Source of the DNA: Obrimoposthia wandeli
Taxonomy: Eukaryota
NCBI GenBank assembly: GCA_977020255.1
Contig: CDROCS010001406.1
Span: forward strand, 62,001-126,000
Length of the DNA: 64,000 nt
Reading direction: 5' to 3'
Shown in pieces: positions 1,805 to 44,500 of the stretch. The notes below the pieces were generated by a model. It had not been told where the DNA came from. It saw only the letters and a list, made by a program, of their open reading frames with translations, and ran no database searches. Every line of letters starts with the position of its first letter. Within the stretch, counting starts at the first letter, position 1. The translations under genes and the position numbers were made by a program.

Positions 1805-2431
1805 ATGGGGCTAAATAACAATGCTGAATTTCAAATAGTTGGTCCCAGTCGAAGTGGAAAGACATATTTCGTATGTAAATTGTTGCAAAATGAATCTCTT
1901 TTCAAATCTAGTTTCAAAAATATTTATTGGCATCATGGTGGAGGAGGGGAAAGCGGATTAACCAAAACAGAAGTTTGCAAGTTGAAAGGAATATAATTTA
2001 TTGAAGGATTTGATGCAAATTGGTGTGAAAGATTGAAAAAAGAAGATGTAATAATAATTGATGATTTGTATCAGGAAGCTAACAAGGAATCAGACTTTAA
2101 TCATTTATTTACAAAGATTGCAAAACATCATGAAGTATCAGTTGTATTTATCACTCACAATATTTTTCATCAATGAGGTCATCATAGAACAAGAAATGTT
2201 AATATACATTACTTAGTATTATTTAAAAATCCTAGAGATCAAACAGTTGTAGATTTTGTAGCCAGACAGGCATTTCCCCAAAATAAGACCTTTCTAGTTG
2301 ATTCATTCTATGATGCTGCTAAACAAGCACATGGGTATATATTTATTGACTTTACACAAGCTTGCCCAGATGATTTACGTGTTTTAACAGACATATTTAA
2401 TTCTAAGGGAGTAACTGTTTATAAATTATGA
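1805..2431 (+). pseudogene. Polinton/Maverick A32-like DNA packaging ATPase, disrupted
   Basis: Reading on in the 1805 frame through stops at 1994-1996 and ~2174 gives Walker A GPSRSGKT, Walker B VIIIDD, then VFITHNIF, HYLVLFKNPRD and HGYIFIDF, ending at TGA 2429-2431. These motifs are typical of Polinton packaging ATPases. Confidence 0.9.
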
Positions 2432-4802: not shown

Positions 4803-5677
4803 TGTTAATAAAGTTATTGTTAAAATTAATCAAATTATTAAGTTGAGTTGATATAATTTATCTTCTGGAAATATATATTAAATTGTATAATTTTCTTGTG
4901 TTTCAATTATTCCAATAGTAATATAACTAATCTTCTTCTGGAAATATATATTAAATTGTATAATTTCAAAAATTCCAATAAGTATATATTTTTATTACAA
5001 TTGTTTTACACTATGAACTTGCTGCTTTAAGTCTGCAGTTTATATATCAAAAAGACACACACAGAGAAGGCAGAATGCATTTACGGAAAATCAGTCGATA
5101 CTGCACCATCTCTATTATCACATTTATGCAGACAGATTTTTCGCACACTATCAATGATTATTATTTGTCCCGTTCTCCATTCTTATCAGCCGAGTTATCC
5201 TTATTGAATCCGGACTGCGAACAACTGCAAATTTCCTGATCACCGTTTCTGCTTCATCTCTACAAGGACACTTTTAAATTTCCATCTAACACTAAGGAGA
5301 GACAGAAAAGGAGAAAACGGCCGCGACATCAGCAACAAGGGAGAGGGAGACAAACATGTAGGTTGATGTGCAGGAGAGAGACGCCAAAAGTCAATTTGGG
5401 GAGAAATCGTCTTGTCAGAAAGGGAACCAACAACACTGGCTGCAGGGGAAAAGGTCACAGCCGCGATGGAGCATGGACTGGCTGAGGACTTAGTACTGGT
5501 TGATCTGCGACCATGAGAGATGGCAGTAGCATGCGAGAGGAGATTGACCACAATATTTACTGGTCCCGCATACACACCCACACACTGCACCTGCGCAAAC
5601 AACATCCGTCTCTACGCCAGCCCTGTGTCTGAGTGCAAACCCAAAATTGCCGCTGTTAAATGCCAAAGTGCATCGCA
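4803..5677 (-). repeat. 3' LTR (LTR-A)
   Basis: On the + strand it runs TGTTAATAAA...AATGCCAAAGTGCATCGCA (TG..CA), with the same terminal motifs as 17777-18786. It is preceded on the - strand by the purine-rich GATTGAGGGAATT (PPT-like), has a TATA-like GATATATAAA, and contains a ~73 bp internal duplication (4861/4934). Confidence 0.65.
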
Positions 5678-5984
5678 AATTCCCTCAATCGCCCCTTAAT
5701 TAAGGGAACAATCAATCTCCCCAAAACAACCCTAACACAATAATCAAACGCTTTCTCATTCCCAACAATCCTATGGGGCAAACAAAGTCAGACCTCTGAC
5801 ATTTTTTAAAACAAGAATAAAAATAATGTCCCGTTTAGCATATAATTGTCCAAAGTGACTTTTACAAAAATAAATTGTTCGAGTCTGTTAATGTAAAGAT
5901 AAAAAATAAAACATTGATTTATACTTTGCATCCACAAGCAATAATACATTTAGTGAATTATGCATAGTAAAATATCTTACTAAT

Positions 5985-7112
5985 CTAAAGGTTGTCCTCA
6001 GAATCAGAGGAGCAAATGTCTACGACTTCAGGCAGGTTATCATTGGCAATGCAGGGGAGAGAGACTGTCAGTCCACATTCTTCTATTAGCTCTTGCTCTT
6101 TATGGAGGAAAATTTTTCGGGTCCATTGTGTGTATATGAGGCTAGAGTGGGTATTCTTTTGTATTTCTTTATTGAAATACCACGAGACCATTCGAGCAAG
6201 TCCAGCTTGTTCTTTACGGTTCATCTCTAATTGAATAGTTCGTGTTGCTCCTAGATCCACCATGTGCGAAAAATCGTTTTTCTGCAGTCCTAAAACTTTG
6301 AGATCGTTGGTTATTCCCGTTCCTACGAAAATGTTGTCTCTTAGCAAGGATTGGACGCGTTCTAACAGTTCGACAGAATCAGGTTGGTTTCTTAACTTTC
6401 GTTCGTTAAGACCCGTTATTCTTGTCACATAATTCCTGATTCTGTCTCTGCTATTGCATTTTGTATCCAAAACGATTTGTCCGCTTCTATTCATTATAGT
6501 AATGCTGGCTAGGGTGGGTTGTTTATTCATTTTTACTACCATTTCACAATCGACAAAAAATATTTGAGGATTGTTGGGGATGATATTCAAATGGCAGACT
6601 TGAATGGGTTTAGGTTGCACATTTTGCTCTATGAATAATATGTTATTTCCACCCGACAAACGAATCATCAAATCGGGAGTTATTTGATGTCTCATCAACC
6701 GGTAAGAGTGGTTTTGCAGGAGAAGGACAGAGAAATGTTTGCTTTTCTTGTGTTTTAAAAATCCACGGCCTTTTGCTACGTGAATCTCAATGTCCGTGCA
6801 TGTAGGTAAGAATTTCATCAACTCAAACAGTCTTTGTTCTGTTGGCTTTTTGCTATTTTTGTTGAGAATTATGCTTTGTCTTGGGGTGTCTCTTAACTTG
6901 ATGCTATTTGGAAGCTGGGTCTGATTGTCAAAAATCTTTATTCGTTAATGGTTATGGAAATACCTTGTTCCAAACTGCCTTATTTTTCCATAAAGGAACT
7001 TAGCCATTTTTGCCATTTCTGGACGTTGTTCTGCTAACTGGACTGACTTCTCTCTCTTACCCTGCGGCACAACCTGCCAGTTCAAATGAGGATTTGTGCT
7101 TGTGGGTTCCAT
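5985..7112 (-). pseudogene. DEDDh 3'-5' exonuclease (REX4/ISG20-like) carried inside the retroelement
   Basis: ORFs 6945-7178 and 5985-6821 are in the same frame, joined by 41 open codons and one TAA (6945-6947). Motifs: ExoI FVDCEMV, TRITGL, ExoII VGTGITNDLKVL, ExoIII THSSLIY (expected Asp is Tyr). The ATG at 7112 directly follows a polypyrimidine tract and CAG. Confidence 0.8.
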
Positions 7113-7546
7113 CTGTAGGGTATACAGATATAGTAAAAAAAAATGTTGATTTTTACATGCAAATATAAAAATTGTCAAATGTCTATCAAATGAAATGTTC
7201 CTGTCAGTTTATTTGTCTCTTTTTGTTAATCAAAAGTCTGTAAATCATTTTAGTCTTTTATGTAACAAGTTCAATCAAACAGGTATATAAATAAGATATA
7301 ATTTTTCATTCTTTAATACATATTCTTATTACTGGTGTTTTCAATATCAATATATACAATGTACATACTTATATAAATATATTCATTTCTATTTATTCTT
7401 AATTTTATTATCACCACTTCAACTAAAGCTAATGAATATTAATACCCATTCATAAACAAATTTCGTCTCCAAAAATATGCCATAAGCCCAAACTCATTCT
7501 CAATTTTCTTTTCTTTTATATTTTAATTTACTCACTGGGGATTTTA

Positions 7547-7855
7547 CTAATTTTCACACCCGGAATCATCACTTTCTCCCGGTTGAAATCCCATCAAACG
7601 ATTAATTACTGATCTCAATGATACAAGAGAGTTTAATGCTTCTCTGAGTCGTCGTACTAATAATTCCTGATTTGTTTGGCTATGTTATAATCTTTCAATT
7701 GCAACGTCAAAAGCATTATTCATTCGCTCACATTCTATTTCCTTGTCTTTCAAATGCGATCTCAGATTTATATTTTCTATCAATAATTTATTTTCCCATT
7801 TCTTCTGTCTCTTATATCTTCTTCTATTATTTTGTACTATTTTCGAATTTCTCAT
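7547..7855 (-). pseudogene. Small basic/coiled-coil accessory ORF (102 codons, one internal stop)
   Basis: Manual translation: MRNSKIVQNNRRRYKRQKKWENKLLIEN...AIERL*HSQTNQELLVRRLREALNSLVSLRSVINRLMGFQPGESDDSGCEN*. The frame stays open across the single TAA at 7685-7687. Confidence 0.45.
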
Positions 7856-8469
7856 TTTCTAAAATGTTAATAAGTCTTAAGCTCATATTTTACTATTTTC
7901 TATTTAAACTAAACACATACGCACTTTCCTTTATCTACATTAAAATTACTTTATTTTATGATTAGTTTTTATTTTAGTATTTCAATTCATGTATTTCTTT
8001 TGACAATTTTATAAAGATTTTTTTCTATTTTCTGTTTATTGTTCTCAATTATTGTATTCATTGATATGTTAGATGAATTTGAAGAGCCAGGTATAATGGA
8101 TGTCATAAATGGGCCAGGTGGTTCACAATATTTAGTCCGATAATGTTTTTTGAAAATTGTGTTATTTTTTTACTTTAATAACCTTCCATGTTATTTTTAT
8201 GATTAACGTAAAGATTTCAATCATTATGATTTTTATAAAAATTTCCATGTTATTTATATTTTTTGAGTATTTTTGTTTACTAAAGTGTATTTTTAGACTT
8301 TCATTGAATGATTTATAGGGTATTGTTTTTGTTGTTTTTAATTGTTTGTTAATTGTTTTATTTTCTGTGATATTACTTTGATTTGTAATTTCATAAGTCT
8401 TTGTTGTGAATGTTGTAGTATGTGGTATTTGTTTTATGGTTGTTTCTTTGATATATTTCCTAATTGTAA

Positions 8470-9260
8470 TTACTGACCATTGGCCACAAAAAATCGTATT
8501 TTATTTTTATTTCCAAAAATCCTTAAGTTTGTTAGATCTTTACAAGTCTCAAATTGTTGTCCCCATTGTCTATACATTATTGGTTTGTTAGTAATTACAC
8601 ATTCTCTATTATCCAAAATTATTTTTTCTGGATATCTTATATTTTTTATAGTGATATTTGTTCTGATTTGTGTTTTTTCTAATTGTTTTTCGGCGTCTTT
8701 CCAAAAATGATCATTATGTCCTCTATATCTAATTCTAATGAGGGTTTTATCAAAATTATCTATTTTAAGTTGAAATTCCCAATTTATCATGATTTGATGT
8801 TTTGTTATATATTTTGCTGACGTTTTTAATATTGAAGCTAAGTATAAGTGAGTTTCTATAATTCTTTCATAGAGTGTTATATTTTTTAAATTCGACTTAA
8901 CTCTTATTTTGTATTGTGTTTCTGTTCTTAAAAATGGTATTATATAATTTTTTGATTCGATTTTGTAAATATTTATTATTTGATTTTTTTCAGATTGTAT
9001 TATTTGAATTCTTCCTAATTTTTTTTTGTAAAGAGTGATATTTTCAACTTTATTGATGTGATTTCAGGTATTATTGTAATAAGTCCAAAATTTTTTATGA
9101 GATGTGTTGATGAGTCGTATCTATTTATTTCGTCTTTTACTATTAATTGATTTTCATTCAGGTTTATAGCGTTTACTTTTATTAGGTTACTTTTTACTGC
9201 AACATATATTACTAATAACATCATTATTTTACATATTTCTTTTATTGATATTTTTATTGT
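8470..9260 (-). pseudogene. Degenerate ORF at the env position, starting with a signal-peptide-like segment fused to the integrase C-terminus
   Basis: The pol ORF continues past the GPY/F motif into [25 protein letters not shown]..., stops next to an A-run at ~9020, and protein-like reading resumes in 8470-8790 and its upstream frame. Confidence 0.45.
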
Positions 9261-12200
9261 ATTTCTGGTTTGATGACTCAAAATAGTTTTGTTTTGTTTT
9301 TGTGAGTTTTTTATTGTCAACATTTGTAGAACTGTATTATCATTAGTTGATCTTAAGTTATATTTGTGACTTTTTACTTTTGTATTCTCCTCAGGTATTT
9401 CTCGACATCTGTTTATATGTGCTCTTATTTCTTTTGATTTTGATTCATTATCTAGTTTAGCTGTTATGTTGGTTCCGTTGGTACTAATGACTGTATATGG
9501 TCCTTTGTATGGTTTTGATAATTTGTGAGACAATCCTACATTAATTTGTGGATTGTGAATCATCACTTTACTTCCACTTTTTATATTTGATGGCTTAGTT
9601 CTTCTATCATAATATTCTTTGTAATTTTCTTGTATGTTTTTTACAAATAATTTAGCTTTTTCAAATGCTAGTTTTATTCTTTCTCTAATTTCTATTTTGT
9701 ATTCAGGTATTTCTAGGTACTGTGTAGTAGGTTGTAGTAATGTTAGATCAATAGGCATTTGAGGATCTCTGAGGAACATAAGGTAAAAAGGTGTTTCTCC
9801 AGTAGATGCATGTACTGATGTTCTATATGCAAAAAGGCATGGAGGTATATGTAAATCCCAATCTATTTGGTTGTTGTTTGTATATGATACCATCATATAT
9901 TCGAGGGTTCTATAAAATCTTTCTACTAATCCATCGGTTTGATGGTGATATGGTGTTGTATTAATCTTTTTTATTTGAAAAATTTCAGCTATTGACGCTA
10001 ATACATTATTTATAAATTCAGGACCTTTGTCGGTTAATAATTTTCGGGGTGCACCGAAAGTAAAAATAATTTTTTCGACTAAAACCTTCGCGATGATTTC
10101 AGCCTTATGATCATGTGTTGGAAAAGCCTCTGGCCATCTTGTAAAATAATCAGAAAATACTATTATATATCGATTTCCTCGGGGTGTTTCAGGTAATGGT
10201 CCCATTACATCCATGGCAACAGTTTCCATGGGGGCTGATGGATAAGGTATTGGCTTTAAAGGTATTTTTGTGGTACGTAAAGTATTTTTCCGTTTAAGAC
10301 ATATTTCACATGTTTTACACCAATTTTTTACATCTTCTTTCATGTCAATCCAATAGTATTTTAAATTTAATCGTGAATGTGTCTTTTTTGATGATAAATG
10401 TCCTCCTAGGGCTCCATTATGATATTGAAGAAGTAATTGACACTGAATTTCTTTAGGAATAACTAGTGAATATAGATTTTTGTCATTTAAATAATATAAT
10501 ATTTCATTACTATATTTGTATCGTGATTCGTGAATTTTTAAATGTTTTCTTAATTTTTCATCTGTTGGTACTTCGTTTGTGCTAATGTATTTAGTTATTT
10601 GCTGAATTTCATTATCTTTGCTTTGAAGTTTAGTTATTACTTTTTCATCATATTTAGCTTGAATTATTGTAAAAAGATTTAATTCGATGTCATTTGCAGT
10701 TATTTCGTTTATTTCTTCTCTTATTCGTGATAGACAATCTGCATTAGCGTTAGATTTTCCTTTTCTATATTTTATTTCAATATCATATTTTTGTAAAATC
10801 AATGCCCATCTCATTAATCTAGATGTTGTATCCTTATGATTTAAAAGCCATTGTAATGGTCTTTGATCTGTGTAAACATAAACCTTTCGACCTAATAAGT
10901 AATGTTTAAAATGTTCCATTGCGAAACAAATAGCTAGGCATTCTCTTTCTATAGTTGAATAATTTATTTCATGTTTTTTAAGACCTCTGCTCGCATATGC
11001 TATCACATGATCTTTTTCGTTATTTTCCTGTTGTCCTAAAACTGCTCCTAACGCATAACCACTGGCGTCAGTCATAACTAAAAATGAGTTATTAAAATTA
11101 GGATATCTAAGTATAGGTTTTTCGATTAGTTTTTGTTTTAAATATTCATAAGATTCTTGTTGTTCTTTTTCCCATTCAAATTTTTCATCTTTTTTAATAA
11201 GTTTATTTAATGGTATTGCTATTTGTGCGAAATTTCTAATAAATCTTCGATAATATCCTGCAAGCCCTAAAAATTCCTGTATATTTTTTACTGTTTTTGG
11301 GATTGGAAAATTTTTAATCTTTTCTACATTACTCTCGTCTGGTTGTATTCCTTTTGCTGATACAGCATGTCCTAAGTAATTTACTTTATCTTTTATCCAT
11401 TCACATTTCTTTGGTTTTAGTTTTAATCCTGCTACCTGTAATCTTAAGAATACGTTTTCTAAATCTTTTAAATGTTCTTCAAAATTTTTTGAAAAAATAA
11501 GAATGTCATCGATATATACCATTACGTGATCTGCATCCATTAAAATATGGCTCATACATCTCTGAAATGTTGCTGGAGCTCCGGTTAATCCAAATGGTAA
11601 GACATTGAATTCATACAATCCTTCTCCTGTTGAGAAAGCTGTTTTATATTTATCTGACTCCTCAATTTCTATTTGCCAGTATCCACTCTGTAAATCCAAA
11701 GTTGTAAATACTTGTGCATTTTTTAGTTTGTCTAATATTTCATCAATTCTTGGCAGTGGATAAGTATCTTTGTGAGTGACTTCGTTTAGTTTTCTGTAAT
11801 CTACGCAAAATCTCAAAGAACCATCTTTCTTTTTACTAAAACAACAGGTGATGTCCATGCAGAAAAACTTCTTCTAACAATTTCATTTTCTAACATTCCT
11901 TTTATTTGTCTTTGAGCCTCATCTCTGTAGGCATATGGAATTCGGTAGGGTCGTTGTTTTATTGCTGTGTTTGTTGTTAACGGAAGATTATGTTTTATCA
12001 AATTTGTTCGACCTAAATCGTATTCATTTTTAGCAAATATTACATCATATTTTTCTGTTAAAGTTTTAAGTTTTGATTTTTCATAATCATTTAATTTAAT
12101 ATCGTTAAAATTTATCGTAGATTTATCTTCTATTTTTTCATTATCTATTAATTCAATATTTTCAATAACACTTATTTTTCCAAGACGTACTCCTTCCTTT

Positions 12201-12860
12201 AGATGAATTTCATTAATGTCTGCATTTAGGATTCTGATTGGTATTGTGTTGTTTTTTATTTTACAAATTATATTTGGCAAAACGTAGTTCAAGGTTTCTT
12301 GTTGATATTTATAAGGTTCAAATAATACATCTTTTTCTGTGATTATGTTAGTTTCTAGTTGTAACATTGTTTCTGTTCTTGGTTGGAGAATGATATCTCC
12401 TTTTATTTCTAACTCGTATTCATCTTTGGCGTTAGGTCTGTAATGTCTTTTATTTGATTTTTTTCAAAATCAAAGTGGAAATTATTTCCTAATCTTCTTA
12501 ATGTATCTATTCCTATGATCATTTGGCAAGGACAATTTTTCATTATTCTTGTAGGTATTTTTATGAATTTATTTCCTATTTTAAAAAAGACAGTCTAATT
12601 TTCCTATTATATCTACGGGTTGACCGTTTGCTGCTGTGACTTGACTATTTTCCTTAAGAAGAAGTAATTTTTGTTGTGTTTTTAAGAAAGATTCGTCTAA
12701 AACTGTTACGCTTGATCCTGTGTCAATTAAAGCTTTAAGTTTATATTCGTTAATTTCTACCTTTACATATGGTCGTTTATCGTTATCTTTTGATTTATTG
12801 TATATATTGTTGGTGCAGTTGATTTTTGTATAGTTGTTTTATCTATATATTTTTCTAAAT
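9015..12860 (-). pseudogene. pol: Gypsy pol (aspartic protease, RT, RNase H, integrase), frameshifted
   Basis: PR ALIDTGSS (DTG at 12716-12724); [39 protein letters not shown]; RNase [26 protein letters not shown]; IN H-H-C-C, MDVMGP, TDKGPEF, GLVER; GPY. Frameshifts near 12590 and 11830. Confidence 0.97.
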
Positions 12861-14841
12861 CAGGATATTGTGAAGATTCCGTTTTTTCTGTTTCTTTTGG
12901 TATTTGTAATTTTTTGTATATTTGTTTCTCGCATTTCATTTGATAATGTATTTACTATGTTTTGATGATGATTAAAAATAAGGAATTTTGCCAAAAATGG
13001 AAAACATCCTAAGATTAATTTCCATGTTAATCCTCCAACTTTATAAATATAATATGTTGATAAAATTTGACTTAGAAGAATCTTAAAGCAAATTAGTAGA
13101 GCATATATTCCAACTAATCCAGAAAATGCTTGTCCAAAAATTAAAATGTTACCCCATATTTTTGACATGGTGTTTTTAGTGGCTTTTATAAAATGATTTG
13201 GAGAAAGTAATAAGTCATAATCGGGACGGCTAATTCCGTCAGGTACTGATCTTTCTATGATTTGTGTTAAAATTCTGGATCTTATTTGTGGAAATAAAAT
13301 TTCTTTTCTTAACTTATCTATATCTTCCTGTATATAAATTCCTTTTGTGTTTAATTCGTTATCTGATTGTATATTGATGTCGTTGCTGAGAGTGGTTAAT
13401 TGTAATTTTTGTGGTTCTGCGACAATATCTCTTCTTGGAAGTGAAATCCAAATATCTTTTGAAATTTGATAATGAGGTGCCATTATGTTTGAGCAGTTTA
13501 TTTCTTTTATGCTAAAAGTGTTAAAAAGTATGATTCTAGTGATTGGTTTTACAAATAATGAATTATTTTTGTAAGAAATTGGTAATTCTTTTGTACATTT
13601 TTGATGATTTCTTATGTTAACTATTACTTTTTTACATTGATAAGTGTAAAACACTTCTCCCATTACTCTTCCAAAAGTACCGTCAGCTAATGGTAATAAT
13701 GGTGTTATTAATTCTGGGTTAGTAGCAATAATTGCCAATTTCGTTTTTAATATCTCCTGATTTAATTTACAATCATTCATTATGGTTTCTCTATATATTG
13801 CTTCTATTGTCATTAGTCCTTTGTGATAAAAATAATCTAATTTATTGTTAAAATAATCATATTTTTAATATCAAATTTAGTTGGTGTCGTTATGTATTTT
13901 TTCATTACTCAAATATATTCCTTTATAATTAGTTGTATAAACAGAGTGTCCACATCGGGATTCCTCTTTCTTTTTAATAAATCGCATTCCTGAACCTTGT
14001 TCAATAGACATTAATATAGTTGGAGTTGGTGTTTTACGTATTTTTCTAGTTCTATATATTTTATGTATGTCCTTTGGAACCTGTTGATCTAGTTCCGGAT
14101 CATCTCTAAATCTTTTTCCTTGAATTATTTGAAAAGTTTCTGATTTTAAATGTATTAATTTACATTGATCGATTTTTACTTTGTAGTAAAGTATTGAAGA
14201 ACCCGTGTTACAGTGACCCATGTTTGCTTCACAAAATGGCATTGTTACCATTGTGTTTGTAGAGGGGTCGAATGTTGCTTTGAAAGTTCTTAGTTCGACT
14301 TCAAAATTTTTAATAACTACCAAACCACTTTGCTTAACTCCCATTACTACATAAGTTCCTGTTGTACATTCTCCATCAGATTTAATCGTACCTACTACTG
14401 ATATCATTTGTTGAATTATTTTATTTTTCGCCGCTCGGACTTTAATTTCTCTATCTATTCTCAATTCTCCTGTTGCGAAAGCATCTTTACAATTTAAAGC
14501 GTCAACTATTATTGGTGTTTTTCCTAATGCTGGTTTTACTATTGAATTGTGACTATGTTGTCCACAATATGTTATAAATGTCTCTACATGTACTCTACAT
14601 TCAAAAACTTCTGCATATATGAAATCTGTTTCCTGATATACTTGATACAACTTAGTATTTTGGATTTTTACCTCATTTGGGTCAGGTCTGCACATTGCTG
14701 TAAATCCATTAAAGAATATTTATTTTGAATTTTATATTTTGAACAATCATATGCTTCTAAAGCATTAATTGGTTTTATCATGTTCATAATTAGACATATT
14801 ATTAATATTATCTGAATAATTTTCCATAATTTTTTCATCAT
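12860..14841 (-). pseudogene. Chuvirus-like (gB-related) envelope glycoprotein, ~660 codons, frameshifted
   Basis: Manual translation from ATG 14841: signal peptide MMKKLWKIIQIILIICLIMNMIKPINA then LEAYDC...SLMDLQQC. A frameshift leads into 13877-14695 (C.V.V...ITYCGQHSHNS, NCKDAFATG) and on into 12860-13813 (YFNNKLDY, C.LNQEILK, GEVFYTYQC, TM FSGLVGIYALL). These motifs match my recollection of Chuviridae glycoproteins. Confidence 0.85.
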
Positions 14842-14914: not shown

Positions 14915-16564
14915 TTACTTTCTTTCTTGTGTTTGAGTAGTTTGGTTTGTTTTTGTGATTGTATATTTATTTTTTTGTAATGTCAAACAACCATCTCTAA
15001 ACATGTCTCCAAATTCGGATTGTAAGTTTGTTCTATCTGTTTGTGGTTCATTGTTATGGCATTGTTGGTGTATTTCTCTGTAGCGATTATCCATTTCTTT
15101 AAGTCGTAATTTTAACAATGCTAATTCGTCTGTGTTTGGAGTTGTTTCTGTATTTTCTATAGTGTGAATAGGGTTTCTTGGGGTATATTGTTGATCTTGA
15201 GTACTGAATTGTACTGTTTTTTGAACTTGTGGTTGTTGTTTTATTGTTGTGTTTCCAAATTGATTCATCATTGTGTTTAATTTTCCACAGTCATCGGTGT
15301 TGTGATTTTTCATATTACAAATCTTACAAAATTTTGTATTATTATTAAAATATCTATTTTGATTATTGTCATAATTATTTGGTTTATTGAAGTTATTATT
15401 CCTTGGTAGTGTATTATTACTCTGTCTATTTATTAATTTTCTACAAGTTTCAATTGTGTGATTGTCTTTTTTGCAAAATCTGCAAAATTTTATGTTACTT
15501 AATTTTCGACAATTTTCTATTGTATGAGTTTTGGAGTCCACAATTTGTGCATTTTTGAAAAAATCTTTGTGTAAATTGTGAGTTTGCAAAATTTTTGTTT
15601 GTCTGGTTTCTATAAAATTATTTCTTGGTGGTCTAAATTGTTGAGGATTTTGAAAATTATATTGAGTGTCTTGGTTAAAATTCCTAGATTGGTTGTAGTT
15701 TGGTGGCGTTTGTGGTCGTTCTATTTTTTCAAAAGATAAAGCTGAAACTTCGGTTTGCTGTATCATATTCAGTCTTGCTTCTACTAGTTGAGCTTTTCCT
15801 ATAGCCTGTTGAAAGTTTTCTACTTCTAGTAAGGCAGGGTGATCTCTAATTTTGTTATTTAATCCATGTAAAAATTGATGTAAAAGTAATCGCTCTCTTT
15901 GTGCTTCTTCTATTTCGGGAAAAGATTTTAATGCTAGTCGTCGTAATTCGACTGCGAATATATTTGTGGGTTCTCCTACATGTTGCTCTCGTTGTCTAAA
16001 TTGATTTAAGTAGTTCTGGTCGGACTGTGCTCCTAAAACCATATTTTGGAAATGCTGGACTAAGTGTTCCCATGTGTCTTTTTGTAGATTTGTTAGTCCT
16101 CTATAAATGGTTAGGGCAGTGCCTTTTAGGTATGCTGGAAAAACTCTAAGTTTTTCTTGGTCTGTCCATTCGAATGCTTGAGCAAAAGAATCATATATAT
16201 TCAAGAATTCTGGTAAAGATGTTTTATCGCCATTAAATGCGTCTAGTGGTATGTTTAATTTATGATTTGCCATTTGAGGTACTTCGTTTATTTGTTCGTT
16301 ATTTATTTCTATGTTAGGTGGTACTGGTTCTGCCACTGTTTCCGATGTTTCTGACGAGTTGTCCGAGTCAGATGTTTGTGGTAAAGATAAACTTTCTGTA
16401 TCTGAATTTGATGTTAGGTTTTGGTTTTCAGAGTCGGTTGAAATTAAGCGATCCGTGTGTTGGTGGACTAACGGAGTTTCAGGGAAAAATTCGTTATTTG
16501 TTCTAAAATTTATCTGGGATTTAGGTCTCTGTGGTAGTGTTTCACTTGTGTTAGTTCTTACCAA
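14915..16564 (-). CDS. gag: Gypsy gag (capsid domain plus CCHC zinc knuckles)
   Basis: FNGD..FL, W...EKL, YLKGTAL, R.Q..GE....FA..LRRLA, HQFL.GL. Knuckles CRFCKKDNHTIETC and CKICNMKNHNTDDC, plus a third (CTNCGLQN-H-TIENC) visible in an offset frame. Confidence 0.92.
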   Translation of the reverse strand: MVRTNTSETLPQRPKSQINFRTNNEFFPETPLVHQHTDRLISTDSENQNLTSNSDTESLSLPQTSDSDNSSETSETVAEPVPPNIEINNEQINEVPQMANHKLNIPLDAFNGDKTSLPEFLNIYDSFAQAFEWTDQEKLRVFPAYLKGTALTIYRGLTNLQKDTWEHLVQHFQNMVLGAQSDQNYLNQFRQREQHVGEPTNIFAVELRRLALKSFPEIEEAQRERLLLHQFLHGLNNKIRDHPALLEVENFQQAIGKAQLVEARLNMIQQTEVSALSFEKIERPQTPPNYNQSRNFNQDTQYNFQNPQQFRPPRNNFIETRQTKILQTHNLHKDFFKNAQIVDSKTHTIENCRKLSNIKFCRFCKKDNHTIETCRKLINRQSNNTLPRNNNFNKPNNYDNNQNRYFNNNTKFCKICNMKNHNTDDCGKLNTMMNQFGNTTIKQQPQVQKTVQFSTQDQQYTPRNPIHTIENTETTPNTDELALLKLRLKEMDNRYREIHQQCHNNEPQTDRTNLQSEFGDMFRDGCLTLQKNKYTITKTNQTTQTQERK

Positions 16565-17759
16565 TCTAGTCTGAATGCGTCTCCAGTGAAGATTAGCACT
16601 ACGTTTAGATTTTGAAATCTTTGTGTATTGTTCACTATTATCCTGCGTACTGGGTCGAAAATTAATTTATGTGTTTATATATTGTTGTCTAGTTTTGTTG
16701 AAAACGATTAAATAAATGTTATATTTTAAATAAATTAATTTTCAAAAACAGTCAGGAATTATTTCTGCTCTGTGATCAAAATACAGCTCGGCCTTATGAT
16801 AATCGATTACCGTGATTTGAGCTGCACTTTCAACCAAAGTAATAGAAAAATTTCTAACTTATTAATATATTTTTAAGTAAAATCTGTTATCACTATTTTT
16901 ATTTTAAAAACCGATATTGAAAATTTGTAAATTTTAATAAACTATTAATATATTTTAAACAAACACAGGATAATTTTGAATCAAAAACTATTGTCTCCAA
17001 ACTATGAAAATTTGTTAATTTGTTAACCCTAGTGTATTTTATTTCTAACTTGAATTAGTAAAAATATTAAAATAAATTTGTGAAAATCCTAAATCTAAAT
17101 AAAGTAATATGTTTGTATTTTAATTCAAAAATAGTCCTAATATTTTATAACTAAATTTCGAATTTCTTATTTTCACTTCTACAGAAAAATGAATTCAAAT
17201 ATGAATTATGTATTTTTATTATTATTGTTTCTATTTTACAAATGTATATATATTGCTCTAAATTTTTATTTTAATAGATCGAGACAATGTAGTTGGGCTT
17301 AAAATAATAATGAATACTCCTTGCAAAACCTCTGGCGGTATGTACCACAAAGTATTTTTACTTTACTTTAATTATTACAACCAAGAAATTATTCTAAAAA
17401 AAATACAGTATAATTTTATTCTAAAAATACAATATAATTTTTATTAAAAATGAATTAAAACGTATATCTAATATTACAAACTATGAGGGACTTTACTCAA
17501 AACACAGTACCTATCAACAAATGCATCAAAAATATTATAGTACGGGTTTTGAAAATAAATTCTATTTAAAATTCCAAAGAAAATATACTTATGTCTACAA
17601 TATAGTATATTTTTTGTGTTTAACACTAATCCAGAAAATAAAAATAAAATACGAATATATTAAACAAGATATATATCTATAATATTACAAATGTATAAGA
17701 AAAATCAACAATGTTAAAAATAAAATTAAAATAAAACTCAAACAAAATTACCGTGCTCG

Positions 17760-17775
17760 TTCTTCGGGCTCACCA
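17760..17775 (-). promoter_or_regulatory. Primer-binding site
   Basis: The - strand reads ...TTAACA T TGGTGAGCCCGAAGA: TGG one base after the LTR's terminal CA. The priming tRNA was not identified. Confidence 0.75.
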
Positions 17776-17831
17776 ATGTTAATAAACGATATTCCAAGGG
17801 TAAAGACGATATCTTCAAACAAACTGCGAAC

Positions 17832-18220
17832 CAGAATAAATATATTTCTTCAAAAAATATTGTCAATGATTAAATCAATTGGTAGCAAAATCAAATGGAT
17901 ATAATTCTTGTTTCTCCTATTATGACTTTTAGGCAAAGTAATATTTCTTGTTGTAAAATTTTTGAATTCAGAATAAATATATTTCTTCAAAAAATATTGT
18001 CAATGATTAAATCAATTGGTAGCAAAATCAAATGGATATAATTCTTGTTTCTCCTATTATGACTTTTAGGAAAAGTAATATTTCTTGTTGTAAAATTTTT
18101 GAATTCAGAATAAATATATTTCTTCAAAAAATATTGTCAATGATTAAATCAATTGGTAGCAAAATCAAATGGATATAATTCTTGTTTCTCCTATTATGAC
18201 TTTTAGGAAAAGTAATATTT
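17832..18220. repeat. 137-bp tandem repeat, ~2.8 near-identical copies
   Basis: Units starting CAGAATAAATATATTTC at 17832, 17969 and 18106. Confidence 0.95.
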
Positions 18221-18699
18221 TAGTTTCTAAAATTAGAAATATCAGTTAAATCAAAATTTATATGCAAATTCCCAAAACTGTCGTCTTATATCTGGCAGCT
18301 GCACAGATTGACTAGGCTGGAAAAGCAGGCAATTCCCGGCTCTACACACACGTACAGATGTGCAGCCGGGAATTATCGTCACCCGATTTCTGTTTCTGGG
18401 CAGGAAGTAAATGGTGCTTTAAAAATATACACACATACACAGCACAAAGAATAGGTGAGAAGGGAGAGTGAGTGAGCAAGGGATTGTGTGAGCGATTGAG
18501 TGAGTAGTGAGAGTGAATGAGTGAGTTGAGTGATGTGTTAATGTTGAGTGAGTGTGTGTGTGTGAATGGTGCACTTGCGCACACTAACACCACATGTCGA
18601 CGATATTCGTCGGCACATGAAAGGGGAATCTTTTCCCTGGCTTTATTATTGTTATCTCTGGCTTCGCGGAATCCACCGCGAAGTTAGAGATAACACGCC

Positions 18700-18751
18700 A
18701 TCTCCCTGATGAGCCCGGCAGGGCGAAACGGGCTTTTTTCCCGTCGGAGAT
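18700..18751 (+). ncRNA. Type I hammerhead ribozyme (HHR1)
   Basis: ATCTCC-CTGATGA-GCCC[GGCA]GGGC-GAAA-CGGG[CTTTTTT]CCCG-TC^-GGAGAT. It has the full catalytic core and perfect stems I, II and III; predicted cleavage is after GUC at 18745. Confidence 0.93.
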
Positions 18752-19313
18752 TGATCACTCTATTGACTAAAATGCCAAAGTGCACAATTCTAAAAATCGG
18801 AACTTTTCCCTAATTAAGGAAAGTTCCCAATTAACTTTTAATTAATTAATTCTCTTTTTTCTTTTATTTCTTTAAAAATTTTATATTTTTATTTTTCTTT
18901 TTTAAAACAATTATTTAATATATTTTCCCAACACATATATACATGTATAAGAATAAATGTAGTACGTGACTTGTTACTATTGATTACATAAATATGCAAG
19001 TATTTGCAAGATAGATGCAGTACGTGACTGTCTTTGTTAGATATATAAACGAACGTTTAAACATATTTATCATATTATATAATACTTTATTTTATAAGTA
19101 GATAGTTTAATTTAATTTAGATTAATTTAGTTTAAACATATTTATCAAATTATATAATACTTTATTTTATAAGTAGATAATTTAGTTAAAATAAATTATA
19201 TAAGCTTGAACACACACACACACACGATATGTCTTTTGGTGAAGACTGCGTGTTAATACCACCTTTAGATAAAAAGATATATAGTTTTAAAGTTTGTGAC
19301 TAAAAATAGAATA

Positions 19314-24118: not shown

Positions 24119-24269
24119 CGATGAGTAAAATTTAGTTGAATAAATTGAAGTGAAATTAATAACAAGTTTTATTCAACTAAATTTGAAAAGTGCTAATATC
24201 TAGAAGACTAGATATAACAACAAAGTTCATCACAGAGACTATTGGAAGATTTTGTAATATTTGTAAGTT

Positions 24270-24420
24270 CAATGTTTGTTATTTTTTGTAATTTTGTTTC
24301 TCAAATTTCGTTTGAAAATGAGTTTACTGTATTTTGAAGTCGATTAAAAATAAGAAATTTGGCTAAAAGTTGGAAACATCCTAAGATTAATTTCCATGTT
24401 AAACCACAAACTTGATATTA
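24270..24420 (-). pseudogene. Fragment of the chuvirus-like glycoprotein C-terminus
   Basis: Encodes GLTWKLILGCFQLLAKFLIFN..QN.VN..SNE, versus GLTWKLILGCFPFLAKFLIFN..QN.VN..SNE at ~12930-13045. The DNA similarity is directly visible. Confidence 0.88.
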
Positions 24421-26346
24421 CTAACTTATGTTGATTAAGTAGAGTTTATAAGCTATTCCACTGCATTATTCTGTTTTGTAAACAAAATATTCTCGTAATT
24501 TCATATAGAATCCATAAATTTAATTTCAGAATCTTTTAGAGGAGGCAAAATTTATTTTATGGAAAGCCATAATTACTAATTTTAAACGCATAAAATTTGT
24601 TTATATAAAAAGCCATCTGAGAAAATATCTAGTTGGTGTTTTCTATTCCCCTTTCTATCCTTTTATATTTGGTCCTAAAGAGATCCAGGATTCGTTCTCA
24701 CTATATTATGTGCTATGTTTTCATATAAACTATGAGGCCAGTTAAAAAGAAGCATAATAATTTATTTTACTTCTCAAGATTCTTGGAGCATCAATAACCT
24801 TAACCGAAAATCTATCCATTGAAGTAAAAGTGAAAATTGATTCATTTAATTATTGATTACAAGTTTTCTTTCTTTGAATATAATAATCTACATACTTGAA
24901 CCTCAAAAGTTCTTTTTATATTGGCGTATTTAAGTATTCGTAAACATAATTTATTTAAAACTTTTTATTTACGAATAGTAGTTAAAAATTTGAATATAAA
25001 ATGTTTTTATACTAGAATTTTCTTAGTTAAAATTTAAACTAATTGGAATTGATAAAATTGCGTATAAACAAAAAAAATAAATTATTGAGTCACAATTTTA
25101 AATATGTTACTAGTATACATGGGGAATTTTCACTTACATTAGCAAATTTTGAATACTTATATTAAATTATATATAATTTTTGAATACAATAAGTTTGTAA
25201 AAGAGCATACAAAAGTCAAATATTACTAAATCTTTTGCTAACTTTATTTAACAAATTCATCAGAATTAAATTTATGAGTTTTTGTACATTTATTGAAGCT
25301 CTAATTCCAGAATTCAATTCGATATCCGATTAATTATCTAAAAATATCAAAAAGCCAAATATTTATGATATTTCCATCTGACTACAGATTAGTTAGAAAT
25401 GCTCAATTAACAAAGGATGGAATAATGGATATAAGGAAATCTTACTGTTGAAAAATCAAGCACCTTTACTATTAATAATATCTACCTTGGAAAGCAGGAA
25501 ACGCTTCTGACCAATAAATAATATTACTGTTAATTTTACAATTTTAGAGATCGACTTATTGTGCATAATATCTTGAACATATTCATATTGTTATCACTTA
25601 TTAAAACTCGATAATGCTCACATAGTCTTATGACATTTCATTACTTCTACCATTATCAGTTTCATAAGGGATTAGGAATTTTAAAAATGGGAAGGTGTTA
25701 AATGAAAAAGTCAAAGTTGATTGATTTAAAAATGTATTGGTTCTGTAGAAAACTTTACAAATTTACAGAAAGTCTCAATAAACGGTTTTGGGATAGCATG
25801 TGAGCTCCAAAGCAGCACCGACACACAATCCGCACTCGGGTCGTACCTCAATCAATCATGTTCCTTCACACTCACATACAGCGGGATATACCACACATTT
25901 ATGCATACATTTCATATTTATAAATAGAGATATATCAATATTAATTACAACAAGAATTATCGAGTAACCAAATCGCAAAAGCAAACTGTTTCCAGTCGTC
26001 AGTGATATGTTTGAGGCAACGATCCCGGTGCAGGGAGCGTGATGCTGTCTGCTGCTTCAGGACACACATTCACTCTTTACTGCTGCTTAAGTTGTTTGAT
26101 GTACACATATACAAACTGTTGCTGCTTCGCGAGAGAAAAATAAAAATAAAATGTTAAAAGAAGAAGTAGTAAATAGGACCCCGAGGAAACACACGTCGTG
26201 AAGAGAAGGATGCAAAGAGGGTCGTGTCTGGTACGAGACCCCGACTACAGATTGTTTCTTTTGGCAGTCAGAGTGGCGTAAATGCTGCGTGACGACGCTC
26301 TCCGCACAAGCGAAAATAGGGTGACAGGAAGGGGTGTCGGTGCACC

Positions 26347-41500: not shown

Positions 41501-44500
41501 TTAACAATATAATCAAATAACAAAGATGATCACAATGCATACTATGGTCATACGATTTTGTATTAGGTGAACAGTTCAAAATATTTTTAAACAATTTCAA
41601 TTACTTTTTTATTTTTTTATTGACAGTTAGTCAATTTTTTGAATTTGATTTGAAAGATTATTTGTTTAACAATCAATTTTAGTGTATGTGTGATAAATAA
41701 TCAAGCAAATAATCACAAATTTAAGCCTTAAATTTTCTTTTAAAATCGTGTCCAGATTAGCGGCAATTTTAGCGTAAAGAGGAAAGAAAAACTGCAACTT
41801 GAATATAACAGTTTTTAAAGACGACCAAAGCACGAAAAGGGCCTTAAGAAGTTTAAACGCTTTTCCGGGCCTTAATTATAATATTGAAGAATTCAGAAGA
41901 CACATCAAGATTTTATGTTTAAAAAATACTGCTGTTAACTACTCAGTTACTTATTTGTAAATGCTTTTTAAAATTCCTCAAAACATTTAATTAAATGAAC
42001 ACTAGTTCGAAATTATCTTTATTCATCTGATTCAATCGAAAAATTATTGGATGATTTTGAATTCAAAATTGCGTTGGCATATTCAGTTTTCAAACGAAAA
42101 AAATTTACTTAATATATGAATTTTATTTGATGGATTAAGAAGATTTAACTTTTACACTAGTTTTAATGATGCATGCAACTGCTTACTAATTCCTGAGAAT
42201 TTCAGCCCTCAATAGGTCGGAAATATAGAAGAATGGTTTGCAAAATTACCACTTCCATTGTAGTGAAGGCAGCTTCTTATTTAGTCTACAAATATATGAG
42301 CAAAAACAGCTGATATTTTCCTAATGTTTGAATTTCTCACAAACTTGTGTATTTGTTTCTGTTCTAGAGTACTTTAGTGGTGAGTGACCTTACTGTGGAC
42401 ATATAAATTATTTGCCAGAAATCATAACTACTACACCTATTAAACCAATCAACGTTCTTCCGAGAGACTGTGAAGAAGCATTTCGAACAGGAAGAATACG
42501 AATAGACTACATACGCACCTGTAGCGAAAGTTGGTTTGGGACGATATGAAACAGTTACGAATAGGAAAACGATGGAATGAAGTATCTTGTAGAGGAGAAA
42601 AAGATATGTACGAGTTGAGGTCGCATCTTTAGTACTACGTCGTGTCACACAGGCAAATCCACAATAATGTATCACGTAGACCCACGATGTTCGTTAATAT
42701 TACTAAAAAAACTCAAATTTAAAAAAATAACAGATTTTCTGTATAATAAAGGAGGTCCTGAATATCATTACATAACAGGACCAATTCCCATCTCCCAGGC
42801 ATTATTAATGGCAAAATCCGCCAAAGAAAGATTAATATTTGTTAAAACATAGGATAAAGCGCGATGTGAAATAAAAGTTAGTACTACAAACTATCCTGAA
42901 ATAGTTCTTTCAAAAGAAACAATAGATATGGCTAAAGTTAAAATAAGTCCCAAAAAAATTCATTTACATACGTATTTTAACAACAAAATAAACTTATATT
43001 ATCACAAAGCATTAAAACAGATAAACAACTGTATCAGATGATGGTAGAGAGATTGCTAGTTAAATAAAAAGATAAGACCAAATTTGGCACAGGCTATTAC
43101 GAATCCAGACATGATAGCATCACTATTACTCTGAGACGAAGGAGTATTTGCTATAACCATGGGAGAAGTACTGTAAACTTGATGTTTCGGTAATATTGAG
43201 AAAGACAGAACACTGTACAAATAAATTATCAGTAACATAAAACAAAAGATCATTTTGTGGAACCAATAACAAGAATGGTACTTCCAAAAGACAGTCCATC
43301 TAAACAAATTAGTTGGTCTAATATAATGACACCTGAATACCAACGAGATATATCGAGAGATTTATGGATAAGATTACTTGACCGTAAACGAACAGCGACT
43401 CCAAAAATTATTTTAAAAATGACAACACTAAAACGTAAGATGTAGTTCGAAGCTGTAAGGAATGTTGAAAATGCAGGTTTATACAATGAGAAAATTTTAA
43501 AAGCGGCCTGGAACGAAATTATATTTTCAGTTAGGGCCAATGTACTCATAGATATGGTATATCGTACATTGCCCACAGGAGTTACATATGCGAATTTTGA
43601 TATGATTTTGTCAGCAAGTCACTTCAAAGAAGCGCACACATTCACTAAGGAAGATGTGGTGAAAATTCCTCATTTTAGGACAATTATTCTCAGGCATAAT
43701 TGGAATTTATGTCATAATTAAATTTTTTTTTAAATAATTATAACACAGATATTATCCACATATACTTTGTACAGGATAACCGGAAACCCCTGGCTACTTA
43801 TAATAGGATGTTTTCCATTTTTAGCGAAATATCTAATGTACCATCATCACGAGAATGAATTACATTTTTGACATTAAATGGATGTCAGTATCTTTTAAAT
43901 ATAATTCGACTTTTCATGTCGGTAAAGTTCATCAACATTGCCGATTTTTATGATTATTTTTCGTTTCCTAATGAATGTAAAAATAAAACCAAGCAGTTGT
44001 ACAATTTGAGAACAATTTGCCTATAATTTAGATGCTGTTTCAACAAAAAAAAGTACAAGTTTTAATGTACACTACATCATTATTCAAAAAATAAAAGTCA
44101 GGACTTCCAAAATTTGAGTTCAACAGTCAAAATCATAAATTAGTCTGTTACTAAATTTATATAGTATAAATTAAAAATAATAATTTAATAGCGCACAGAT
44201 AATAAATTTAACCAAATAAACAAAAAATTATTTGTTACTTATTTGGTAAGAAATTATATGATTATTTCACTATTTAAATTTTACGCCTGCTTTTTCAGAG
44301 TCAGTTACATGAAAATAATTGTGTTTTTTAAATACGCAAAACCCTCTTTTTCTTAAGGATTAATCTAGGAAAAATGTTTTTTATATATAAATATATATTT
44401 AGTTAACATTAAGTAAAGAAGCAGTTTACATGTTTTTAAGTCTACTTTAGATCAATTATGATATGTTACATGTCTAACATTCGTCCTATTTACAAAATTG

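Follow-up and report, generated by a model that had tools for sequence, protein, structure and literature searches.

We analyzed a 64,000-nucleotide stretch of the Obrimoposthia wandeli genome (contig CDROCS010001406.1, positions 62,001 to 126,000; hereafter the window) and found that a DEDDh exonuclease ORF, present there as a dead copy, belongs to a large Gypsy lineage as a fixed accessory gene, on which purifying selection acts while the elements replicate. Comparisons among copies show that it is carried on a 3' cassette, made of a small ORF and the exonuclease, that recombination swaps between lineages. Our best explanation as a whole, a selected, exchangeable and spliced cargo gene for a nuclease that counters silencing, is tentative, and we would not quite call it probable.

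See Table 1 for the coordinates of all features. The exonuclease ORF of the window has one in-frame stop (6945-6947) and lacks an acidic residue at the last catalytic position (6132-6134); both defects had been noticed in an earlier sequence-only reading of this DNA, and they leave the window copy dead. Pfam RNase_T matches residues 186-325 of the ORF (E = 6e-7), and 26 of the 30 best loci are colinear over 1125 nt, in agreement with the intronless REX4/ISG20-like domain that had been described. That reading placed the ORF between pol and a polypurine tract with the 3' LTR. The location stands, but no purine-rich tract was found upstream of the window 3' LTR, and the ORF does not directly adjoin pol, as a polyprotein tail of ~400 aa and the small ORF (7547-7855) intervene after the integrase. 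Similarly, the N-terminal stretch it called unknown is present but has a predicted double-stranded beta-helix fold. The hairpin and C-rich tract at the expected polypurine-tract site is common to types A, C, and D of the exonuclease-bearing elements, and type B has a different version.

Table 1. Features of the Gypsy element in the window (positions are those of the window)
Feature	Position	Strand	Remarks
3' LTR	4803..5767	minus	different lineage from 5' LTR; without hammerhead core
Hairpin and C-rich tract	5768..5800	minus	at expected polypurine-tract site
DEDDh exonuclease ORF (type A)	5985..7112	minus	ATG 7112, stop 5985, 375 codons
ISG20/REX4-like exonuclease domain	6075..6563	minus	
Exonuclease motif codons	6549-6551, 6543-6545, 6303-6305, 6147-6149, 6132-6134	minus	
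N-terminal double-stranded beta-helix domain (AlkB/cupin-like)	6618..6944	minus	predicted fold; long helix before it
Putative splice acceptor	7113..7143	minus	T-tract ... CAG, abuts ATG
Small accessory ORF	7547..7855	minus	102 codons, one stop in window copy; in exchangeable cassette
Small-ORF TTTAG acceptor-like site	ends at 7859	minus	
Polyprotein tail after integrase	8162..9063	minus	frameshifted in window, continuous in other copies
Gypsy protease, RT, RNase H, integrase	9015..12838	minus	Pfam
Monjiviricetes-type fusion glycoprotein	12860..14719	minus	gag/protease interval; PF24664, E 3e-58 and 2e-22
Gag-like frame	14915..16666	minus	by position and Cys/His motifs; no Pfam match
Putative major splice donor	17750..17751	minus	shortly 3' of PBS
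Primer-binding site (PBS)	17764..17775	minus	begins TGG
5' LTR	17777..18933	minus	lineage normally carrying type-B exonuclease
Hammerhead-like core	18700..18751	plus	antisense to element; 5' LTR only

The element is ~14 kb long and runs in the order LTR, PBS, gag-like frame, glycoprotein, protease, RT, RNase H, integrase, tail, small ORF, exonuclease, LTR, with the fusion glycoprotein in frame with its neighbours in sister copies. The family has the Ty3/Gypsy features of PR-RT-RH-INT order, paired LTRs, PBS, and short target duplication, including paired LTR matches of 95-99% in 3 of 10 element stretches examined and a 4-bp target duplication in two copies. The window copy itself lacks the paired LTRs and the duplication (its flanks give a 3/4 target-duplication match), as it is a chimera with unlike LTRs that do not align to one another. 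Its 5' LTR and integrase match elements carrying another exonuclease type. Its 3' part is 95-98% identical to the C350 element; both LTRs of that element are of the window's 3' kind (98.9% alike), and it is flanked by a 4-bp target duplication. Above position 10000 the identity is only 68-90%, and the switch between the two parental lineages falls within about 9250-10000. Because unlike LTRs are impossible from one reverse transcription, we infer that the junction arose by ectopic recombination after insertion or by mis-assembly.

Several further observations concern the element and its surroundings. The polyprotein tail matches no Pfam family; the post-integrase region (window 8162-9300; L055:1-2484) encodes ~400 aa, including a signal-like hydrophobic stretch, and lineages have exchanged it as well. 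The LTRs are hypervariable, forming 29 clusters among 30 PBS-anchored copies (loci L137-L166; last 700 nt, clustered at 80% identity over 350 nt) and sharing only their ends and short motifs. The glycoprotein region has more distant relatives elsewhere in the window, in pieces at 24240-24438 and 42428-43861 with 67-83% identity. Positions 2177-2431 (plus strand) and 1-2500 hold a repeated stretch with a reading frame that resembles a Polinton packaging ATPase and has no Pfam match.

The hammerhead-like core of the 5' LTR has no Rfam match at the gathering score and a folding z-score of -0.27. Such a core, which folds with stem I open, occurs antisense in 51 of 65 LTR regions and in sense orientation in none of the 65. 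A functional coupling of the nuclease to this antisense ribozyme, as earlier suggested, is not favored, because some LTR lineages without the core keep the catalytic set. The core is also missing in the lineage of the window 3' LTR. DEDDh enzymes need a 3'-OH, and hammerhead cleavage leaves none on the 5' product.

The genome was searched with the window protein, yielding 5521 first-look candidates; all 125 that were scored matched, and the 124 other than the window copy match at 90-96%. A single-copy processed host pseudogene is ruled out by this copy number. We also sampled elements independently of the ORF by taking 20 of 150 integrase matches at spread ranks. A DEDDh ORF lies at the same location in 19 of these 20 (15 of type B, 3 of type C, 1 of type D), and the twentieth ceases to match the element 1.2 kb in. 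There are at least 125 scored matches for type A, at least 110 for type C, and at least 109 for type D. The four types are 34-68% identical among 65 open copies, 63 of which, spanning all four types, retain all five catalytic residues. Of the 26 colinear copies among the best 30 type-A loci, 15 are free of stops; the five residues are retained in 26, 26, 25, 25, and 24 of the 26, respectively. The D-x-E, D, H-x4-D catalytic set is present at the level of the family, and the window copy lacks its last residue. At L168 (G000:C5740:59001-69000), three exonuclease copies with partial LTRs are clustered, and they include a further subtype, ~75% identical to type A and also with CAG before its ATG. 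Outside this genome, a distant homologue lies directly after Gypsy pol in a metagenome locus (L121, the single one of 22 non-window N-domain homologues that was viewed in context); in this relative a second aspartic-protease-like stretch is present, as is a membrane-like tail after the integrase (L121:3550-4776).

The sequence-only reading had made its cargo claim depend on purifying selection among the copies, and such selection is what we found. A codon model of eight real copies, two per type, gave an omega of 0.105 (lnL -4321.3 versus -4509.8 at omega = 1), with 0.12 for the N-domain and 0.086 for the exonuclease; types A and C differ by a pN of 0.20 and a pS of 0.76, and these omega values are rough because synonymous sites are saturated between types. 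The protein showed no sign of positive selection. Among 26 type-A copies, pN/pS is 0.68 for private variants versus 0.17 for variants present in at least four copies (Fisher p = 0.0003), with within-type pN and pN/pS biased low by the ranking of copies on protein score. This contrast is the pattern expected if selection acts in replicating lineages.

The N-domain fold was predicted from an uninterrupted natural sister copy, and AlkB and cupins are tied on score as its best likeness. Columns conserved in 10 or more of the 17 members include a single His and neither HxD nor HxH, so that the HxD...H iron ligands were not found. The exonuclease domain is predicted to adopt a DnaQ fold closest to ISG20, and the closest solved structures are ISG20L2, ISG20, and the small-RNA-degrading nuclease SDN1. 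In phylogenies, the element types form a group separate from the host REXO4-like gene (FastTree 0.999, 33 tips; UFBoot 93, with one outsider). The host gene (L071/L122) groups with P0070 (UFBoot 100), and it has an intron and a lysine-rich N-terminus.

Evidence for exchange of the 3' cassette comes from pairwise comparisons. The integrases of C and D elements differ by a pS of only 0.02 (three pairs, one D copy), and as far as the polyprotein stop these elements remain 96-99% identical; beyond it identity drops to background, with bins of 44-53% (again one D copy). Because polyprotein tails 96% identical are followed by exonuclease types only 34% alike, the 3' cassette must have been exchanged by recombination. 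The tail is common to 224 of 224 C-D pairs at a median of 95.7%, with nothing common nearer the ATG than 724 nt; A-C pairs, in turn, share the small ORF (336 of 352) and not the tail. From these patterns, the tail, small ORF, exonuclease, and LTR are modular in their behavior. The small ORF itself occurs in two unrelated forms, one in types A and C and one with CxxC in types B and D, each with a TTTAG acceptor-like site. Each swapped lineage amplified and retained the nuclease, and the deep diversity of the cassettes together with the hypervariable LTRs (29 clusters in 30 copies) fits a conflict with the host.

The tract abutting the exonuclease ATG had been read as a splice acceptor, and a T-tract and CAG indeed abut it, with the CAG conserved across four types. 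CAG is found at the ATG in 28 of 29 type-A loci having the start; types A, C, and D have it adjoining the ATG and type B has it one base upstream, in flanks that are not alignable. On a crude pyrimidine score the window acceptor comes 5th among the 647 AG sites of the window element, which is not striking alone, and its support is the conservation across types. TTTAG precedes the small-ORF ATG in 15/22, 11/13, 14/16, and 13/14 copies. In 23 of 30 copies and 9 of 16 leader types, the 45 nt that follow the PBS contain a donor-like site, compared with 1.4 on average and at most 6 over 2000 shuffled controls, the pattern having been picked after inspection of five leaders. In addition, when the genome was scanned for an exonuclease ATG with a PBS no more than 38 nt away, one genomic copy was found (control, 0), in which the leader ends at the donor position of related leaders and continues at the ATG. 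This joined copy is single and lies in a rearranged cluster. It may derive from a spliced RNA that was reverse-transcribed, or from a deletion at the 4-6 nt of microhomology present at its joint. Corresponding searches for type B and the small ORF gave no such copy.

On sequence evidence, then, it is likely that the full-length RNA is spliced from the post-PBS donor to acceptors before the accessory ATGs, making the nuclease separate from the polyprotein and able to act in trans, although this donor could instead serve a leader intron. The claim of a spliced subgenomic RNA is supported to that extent, by CAG in four types, a donor in 23 of 30 copies, and one joined copy. Acceptors directly before downstream-ORF ATGs are also typical of spliced-leader trans-splicing, which flatworms, to which the host may belong, have (PMC12582326), and such trans-splicing or an internal promoter would change the expression route only. 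We consider this route improbable given the donor-like site in most leaders and the genomic copy that joins donor to ATG.

As for function, NP of arenaviruses is a DEDDh nuclease that removes dsRNA. In the mechanism that we propose, recombination moves the small ORF and exonuclease cassette among replicating Gypsy lineages, and a spliced RNA would allow the nuclease to be made apart from the gag-glycoprotein-pol polyprotein and to act in trans. The nuclease would be an ISG20/SDN1-like, metal-dependent 3'-5' exoribonuclease that binds RNA or a partner through its metal-free beta-helix domain; it would degrade host small RNAs or antisense element RNA and so blunt RNA silencing of the element. 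This activity and target are a possibility that we put forward with reserve; an anti-RNAi factor was also among the suggestions of the sequence-only reading. Three points favor such a target: the closest structures are those of enzymes acting on single-stranded and small RNA, near-identical pol can carry interchanged forms of the gene, and its neighbors are fast-changing modules. Against it, turnover of cassettes and LTRs could be an escape from sequence-matched small RNAs, whatever the protein does, the protein shows an omega of about 0.1 with no sign of positive selection, and the authors of the rotifer study saw no clear relation of DEDDy ORF3 to copy number (PMC5408684). A bolder version, which we regard as doubtful, is that an ancient two-domain family, a degenerate AlkB-like RNA-reading module joined to an ISG20-like exonuclease, is an enzymatic suppressor of small-RNA silencing in an animal Gypsy lineage, expressed like a complex-retrovirus accessory gene and kept as deeply diverged, shuffled cassettes. 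No such two-domain family was found in the literature searched.

The main competitor is a replication helper, which would trim the 3' ends of element RNA, the plus-strand primer, or cDNA, or would proofread the 14-kb genome. Near-obligate presence (19/20) and steady purifying selection suit such housekeeping, and the family is without a canonical polypurine tract; furthermore, 3'-end processing has been proposed for rotifer ORF3 (PMC5408684) and a fidelity role for the DEDDy genes of closteroviruses (PMC8297929). However, the product of a separate, apparently spliced ORF does not reach particles in the way a polyprotein domain does, and a search for longer (fused) forms found none, which is a weak argument. 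Exonuclease types 34% alike function with near-identical pol, which argues against a tight RT partnership, and the L121 relative keeps the gene despite a purine-rich tract, identified by eye, before a TGTTGG LTR-like start. Primer trimming, an earlier suggestion, is not favored in particular because the PBS starts 1-3 nt beyond the LTR with TGG, which suits an ordinary tRNA primer of full length, and needs no trimming. Overall, we judge a helper role unlikely.

Less likely still is that the nuclease protects the carrier cell, either by acting in an ISG20-like manner against RNA viruses or rival elements or by changing host RNA turnover. In its favor are the fold, which is nearest to that of ISG20, the host-modulating domains of planarian Burro elements (PMC6431247), and the several coexisting types, which would suit incompatibility groups; yet it is the replicating lineages that are under selection and not the inserted copies (private pN/pS 0.68), which makes any benefit one of the element. 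Finally, a neutral passenger or processed host REXO4 pseudogene, suggested by the broken and intronless window copy, has practically no chance of being right and is already refuted by the copy and selection data (thousands of first-look candidates, omega about 0.1), as well as by an element clade apart from the host's intron-containing REXO4-like gene.

The Gypsy ORF and its element can be compared with several known systems. Exonuclease is counted among the known accessory domains of LTR elements (PMC6338049), and the bdelloid rotifer Juno/Vesta LTR retrotransposons and Athena/Terminon elements carry a DEDDy ORF3 (PMC5408684; PMC6431247). Like the Gypsy ORF, the rotifer ORF3 is a predicted DnaQ-fold 3'-5' exonuclease in a separate 3' ORF of an LTR element, here between pol and the 3' LTR, with intact catalytic residues, assumed spliced expression, and a distribution over several element lineages. 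However, ORF3 is RNase D-like DEDDy with a DEED motif, whereas the Gypsy ORF is DEDDh with H-x4-D and matches RNase_T. The Gypsy ORF also differs in its beta-helix domain, its near-obligate presence in a family of thousands, its purifying selection, and the cassette exchange between near-identical pol backbones. The rotifer cargo thus belongs to a different subfamily, and the parts of that report covered include no selection test on that ORF (PMC5408684). DEDDy genes are also carried by closteroviruses (PMC8297929). We found no DEDDh cargo in Gypsy elements in the literature searched.

The planarian Gypsy elements Burro/GYPSM1 resemble the present family in having a mononegavirus-like fusion glycoprotein in frame between gag and pol (gag/protease), accessory ORFs, and thousands of copies (PMC6431247). 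In contrast, Burro is over 30 kb, and the sections of its description covered mention no exonuclease (PMC6431247); its BIR, BCL2, ankyrin, and MATH cargo domains gave no hit in a Pfam scan of the window frames. Cellular ISG20, ISG20L2, REXO4, and SDN1 have the same fold and DEDDh active site at 20-30% identity, but only the element proteins carry the beta-helix domain and group apart from the host REXO4-like gene. AlkB domains occur in plant RNA viruses and orchid Gypsy elements (PMC9289625), a likeness in that a predicted double-stranded beta-helix again rides on a mobile RNA element; unlike those, the N-domain here has no conserved HxD...H, is tied with cupins, and is fused to an exonuclease. 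The most convincing transposon-encoded silencing suppressor described in the source covered is VANC of the VANDAL plant DNA transposons, also a transposon accessory protein with a counter-silencing model; it acts on DNA methylation, and we claim no homology (PMC6719617).

Exonuclease cargo as such is already known from rotifers, and what is new here is the unrecognised second domain and the exchange of cassettes, which shows that Gypsy elements trade accessory genes as modules. The sequence-only reading had mentioned neither the rotifer LTR precedent nor the four exchangeable types nor the fold of the N-terminal domain. In a family filling much of the genome, the gene is near-obligate, under selection, and present as several exchangeable types, and it is also present in a related element elsewhere. 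Such ORFs should not be labelled host REXO4 in annotation. The exonuclease also offers a defined protein for asking whether retrotransposons of animals encode enzymes directed against RNA silencing.
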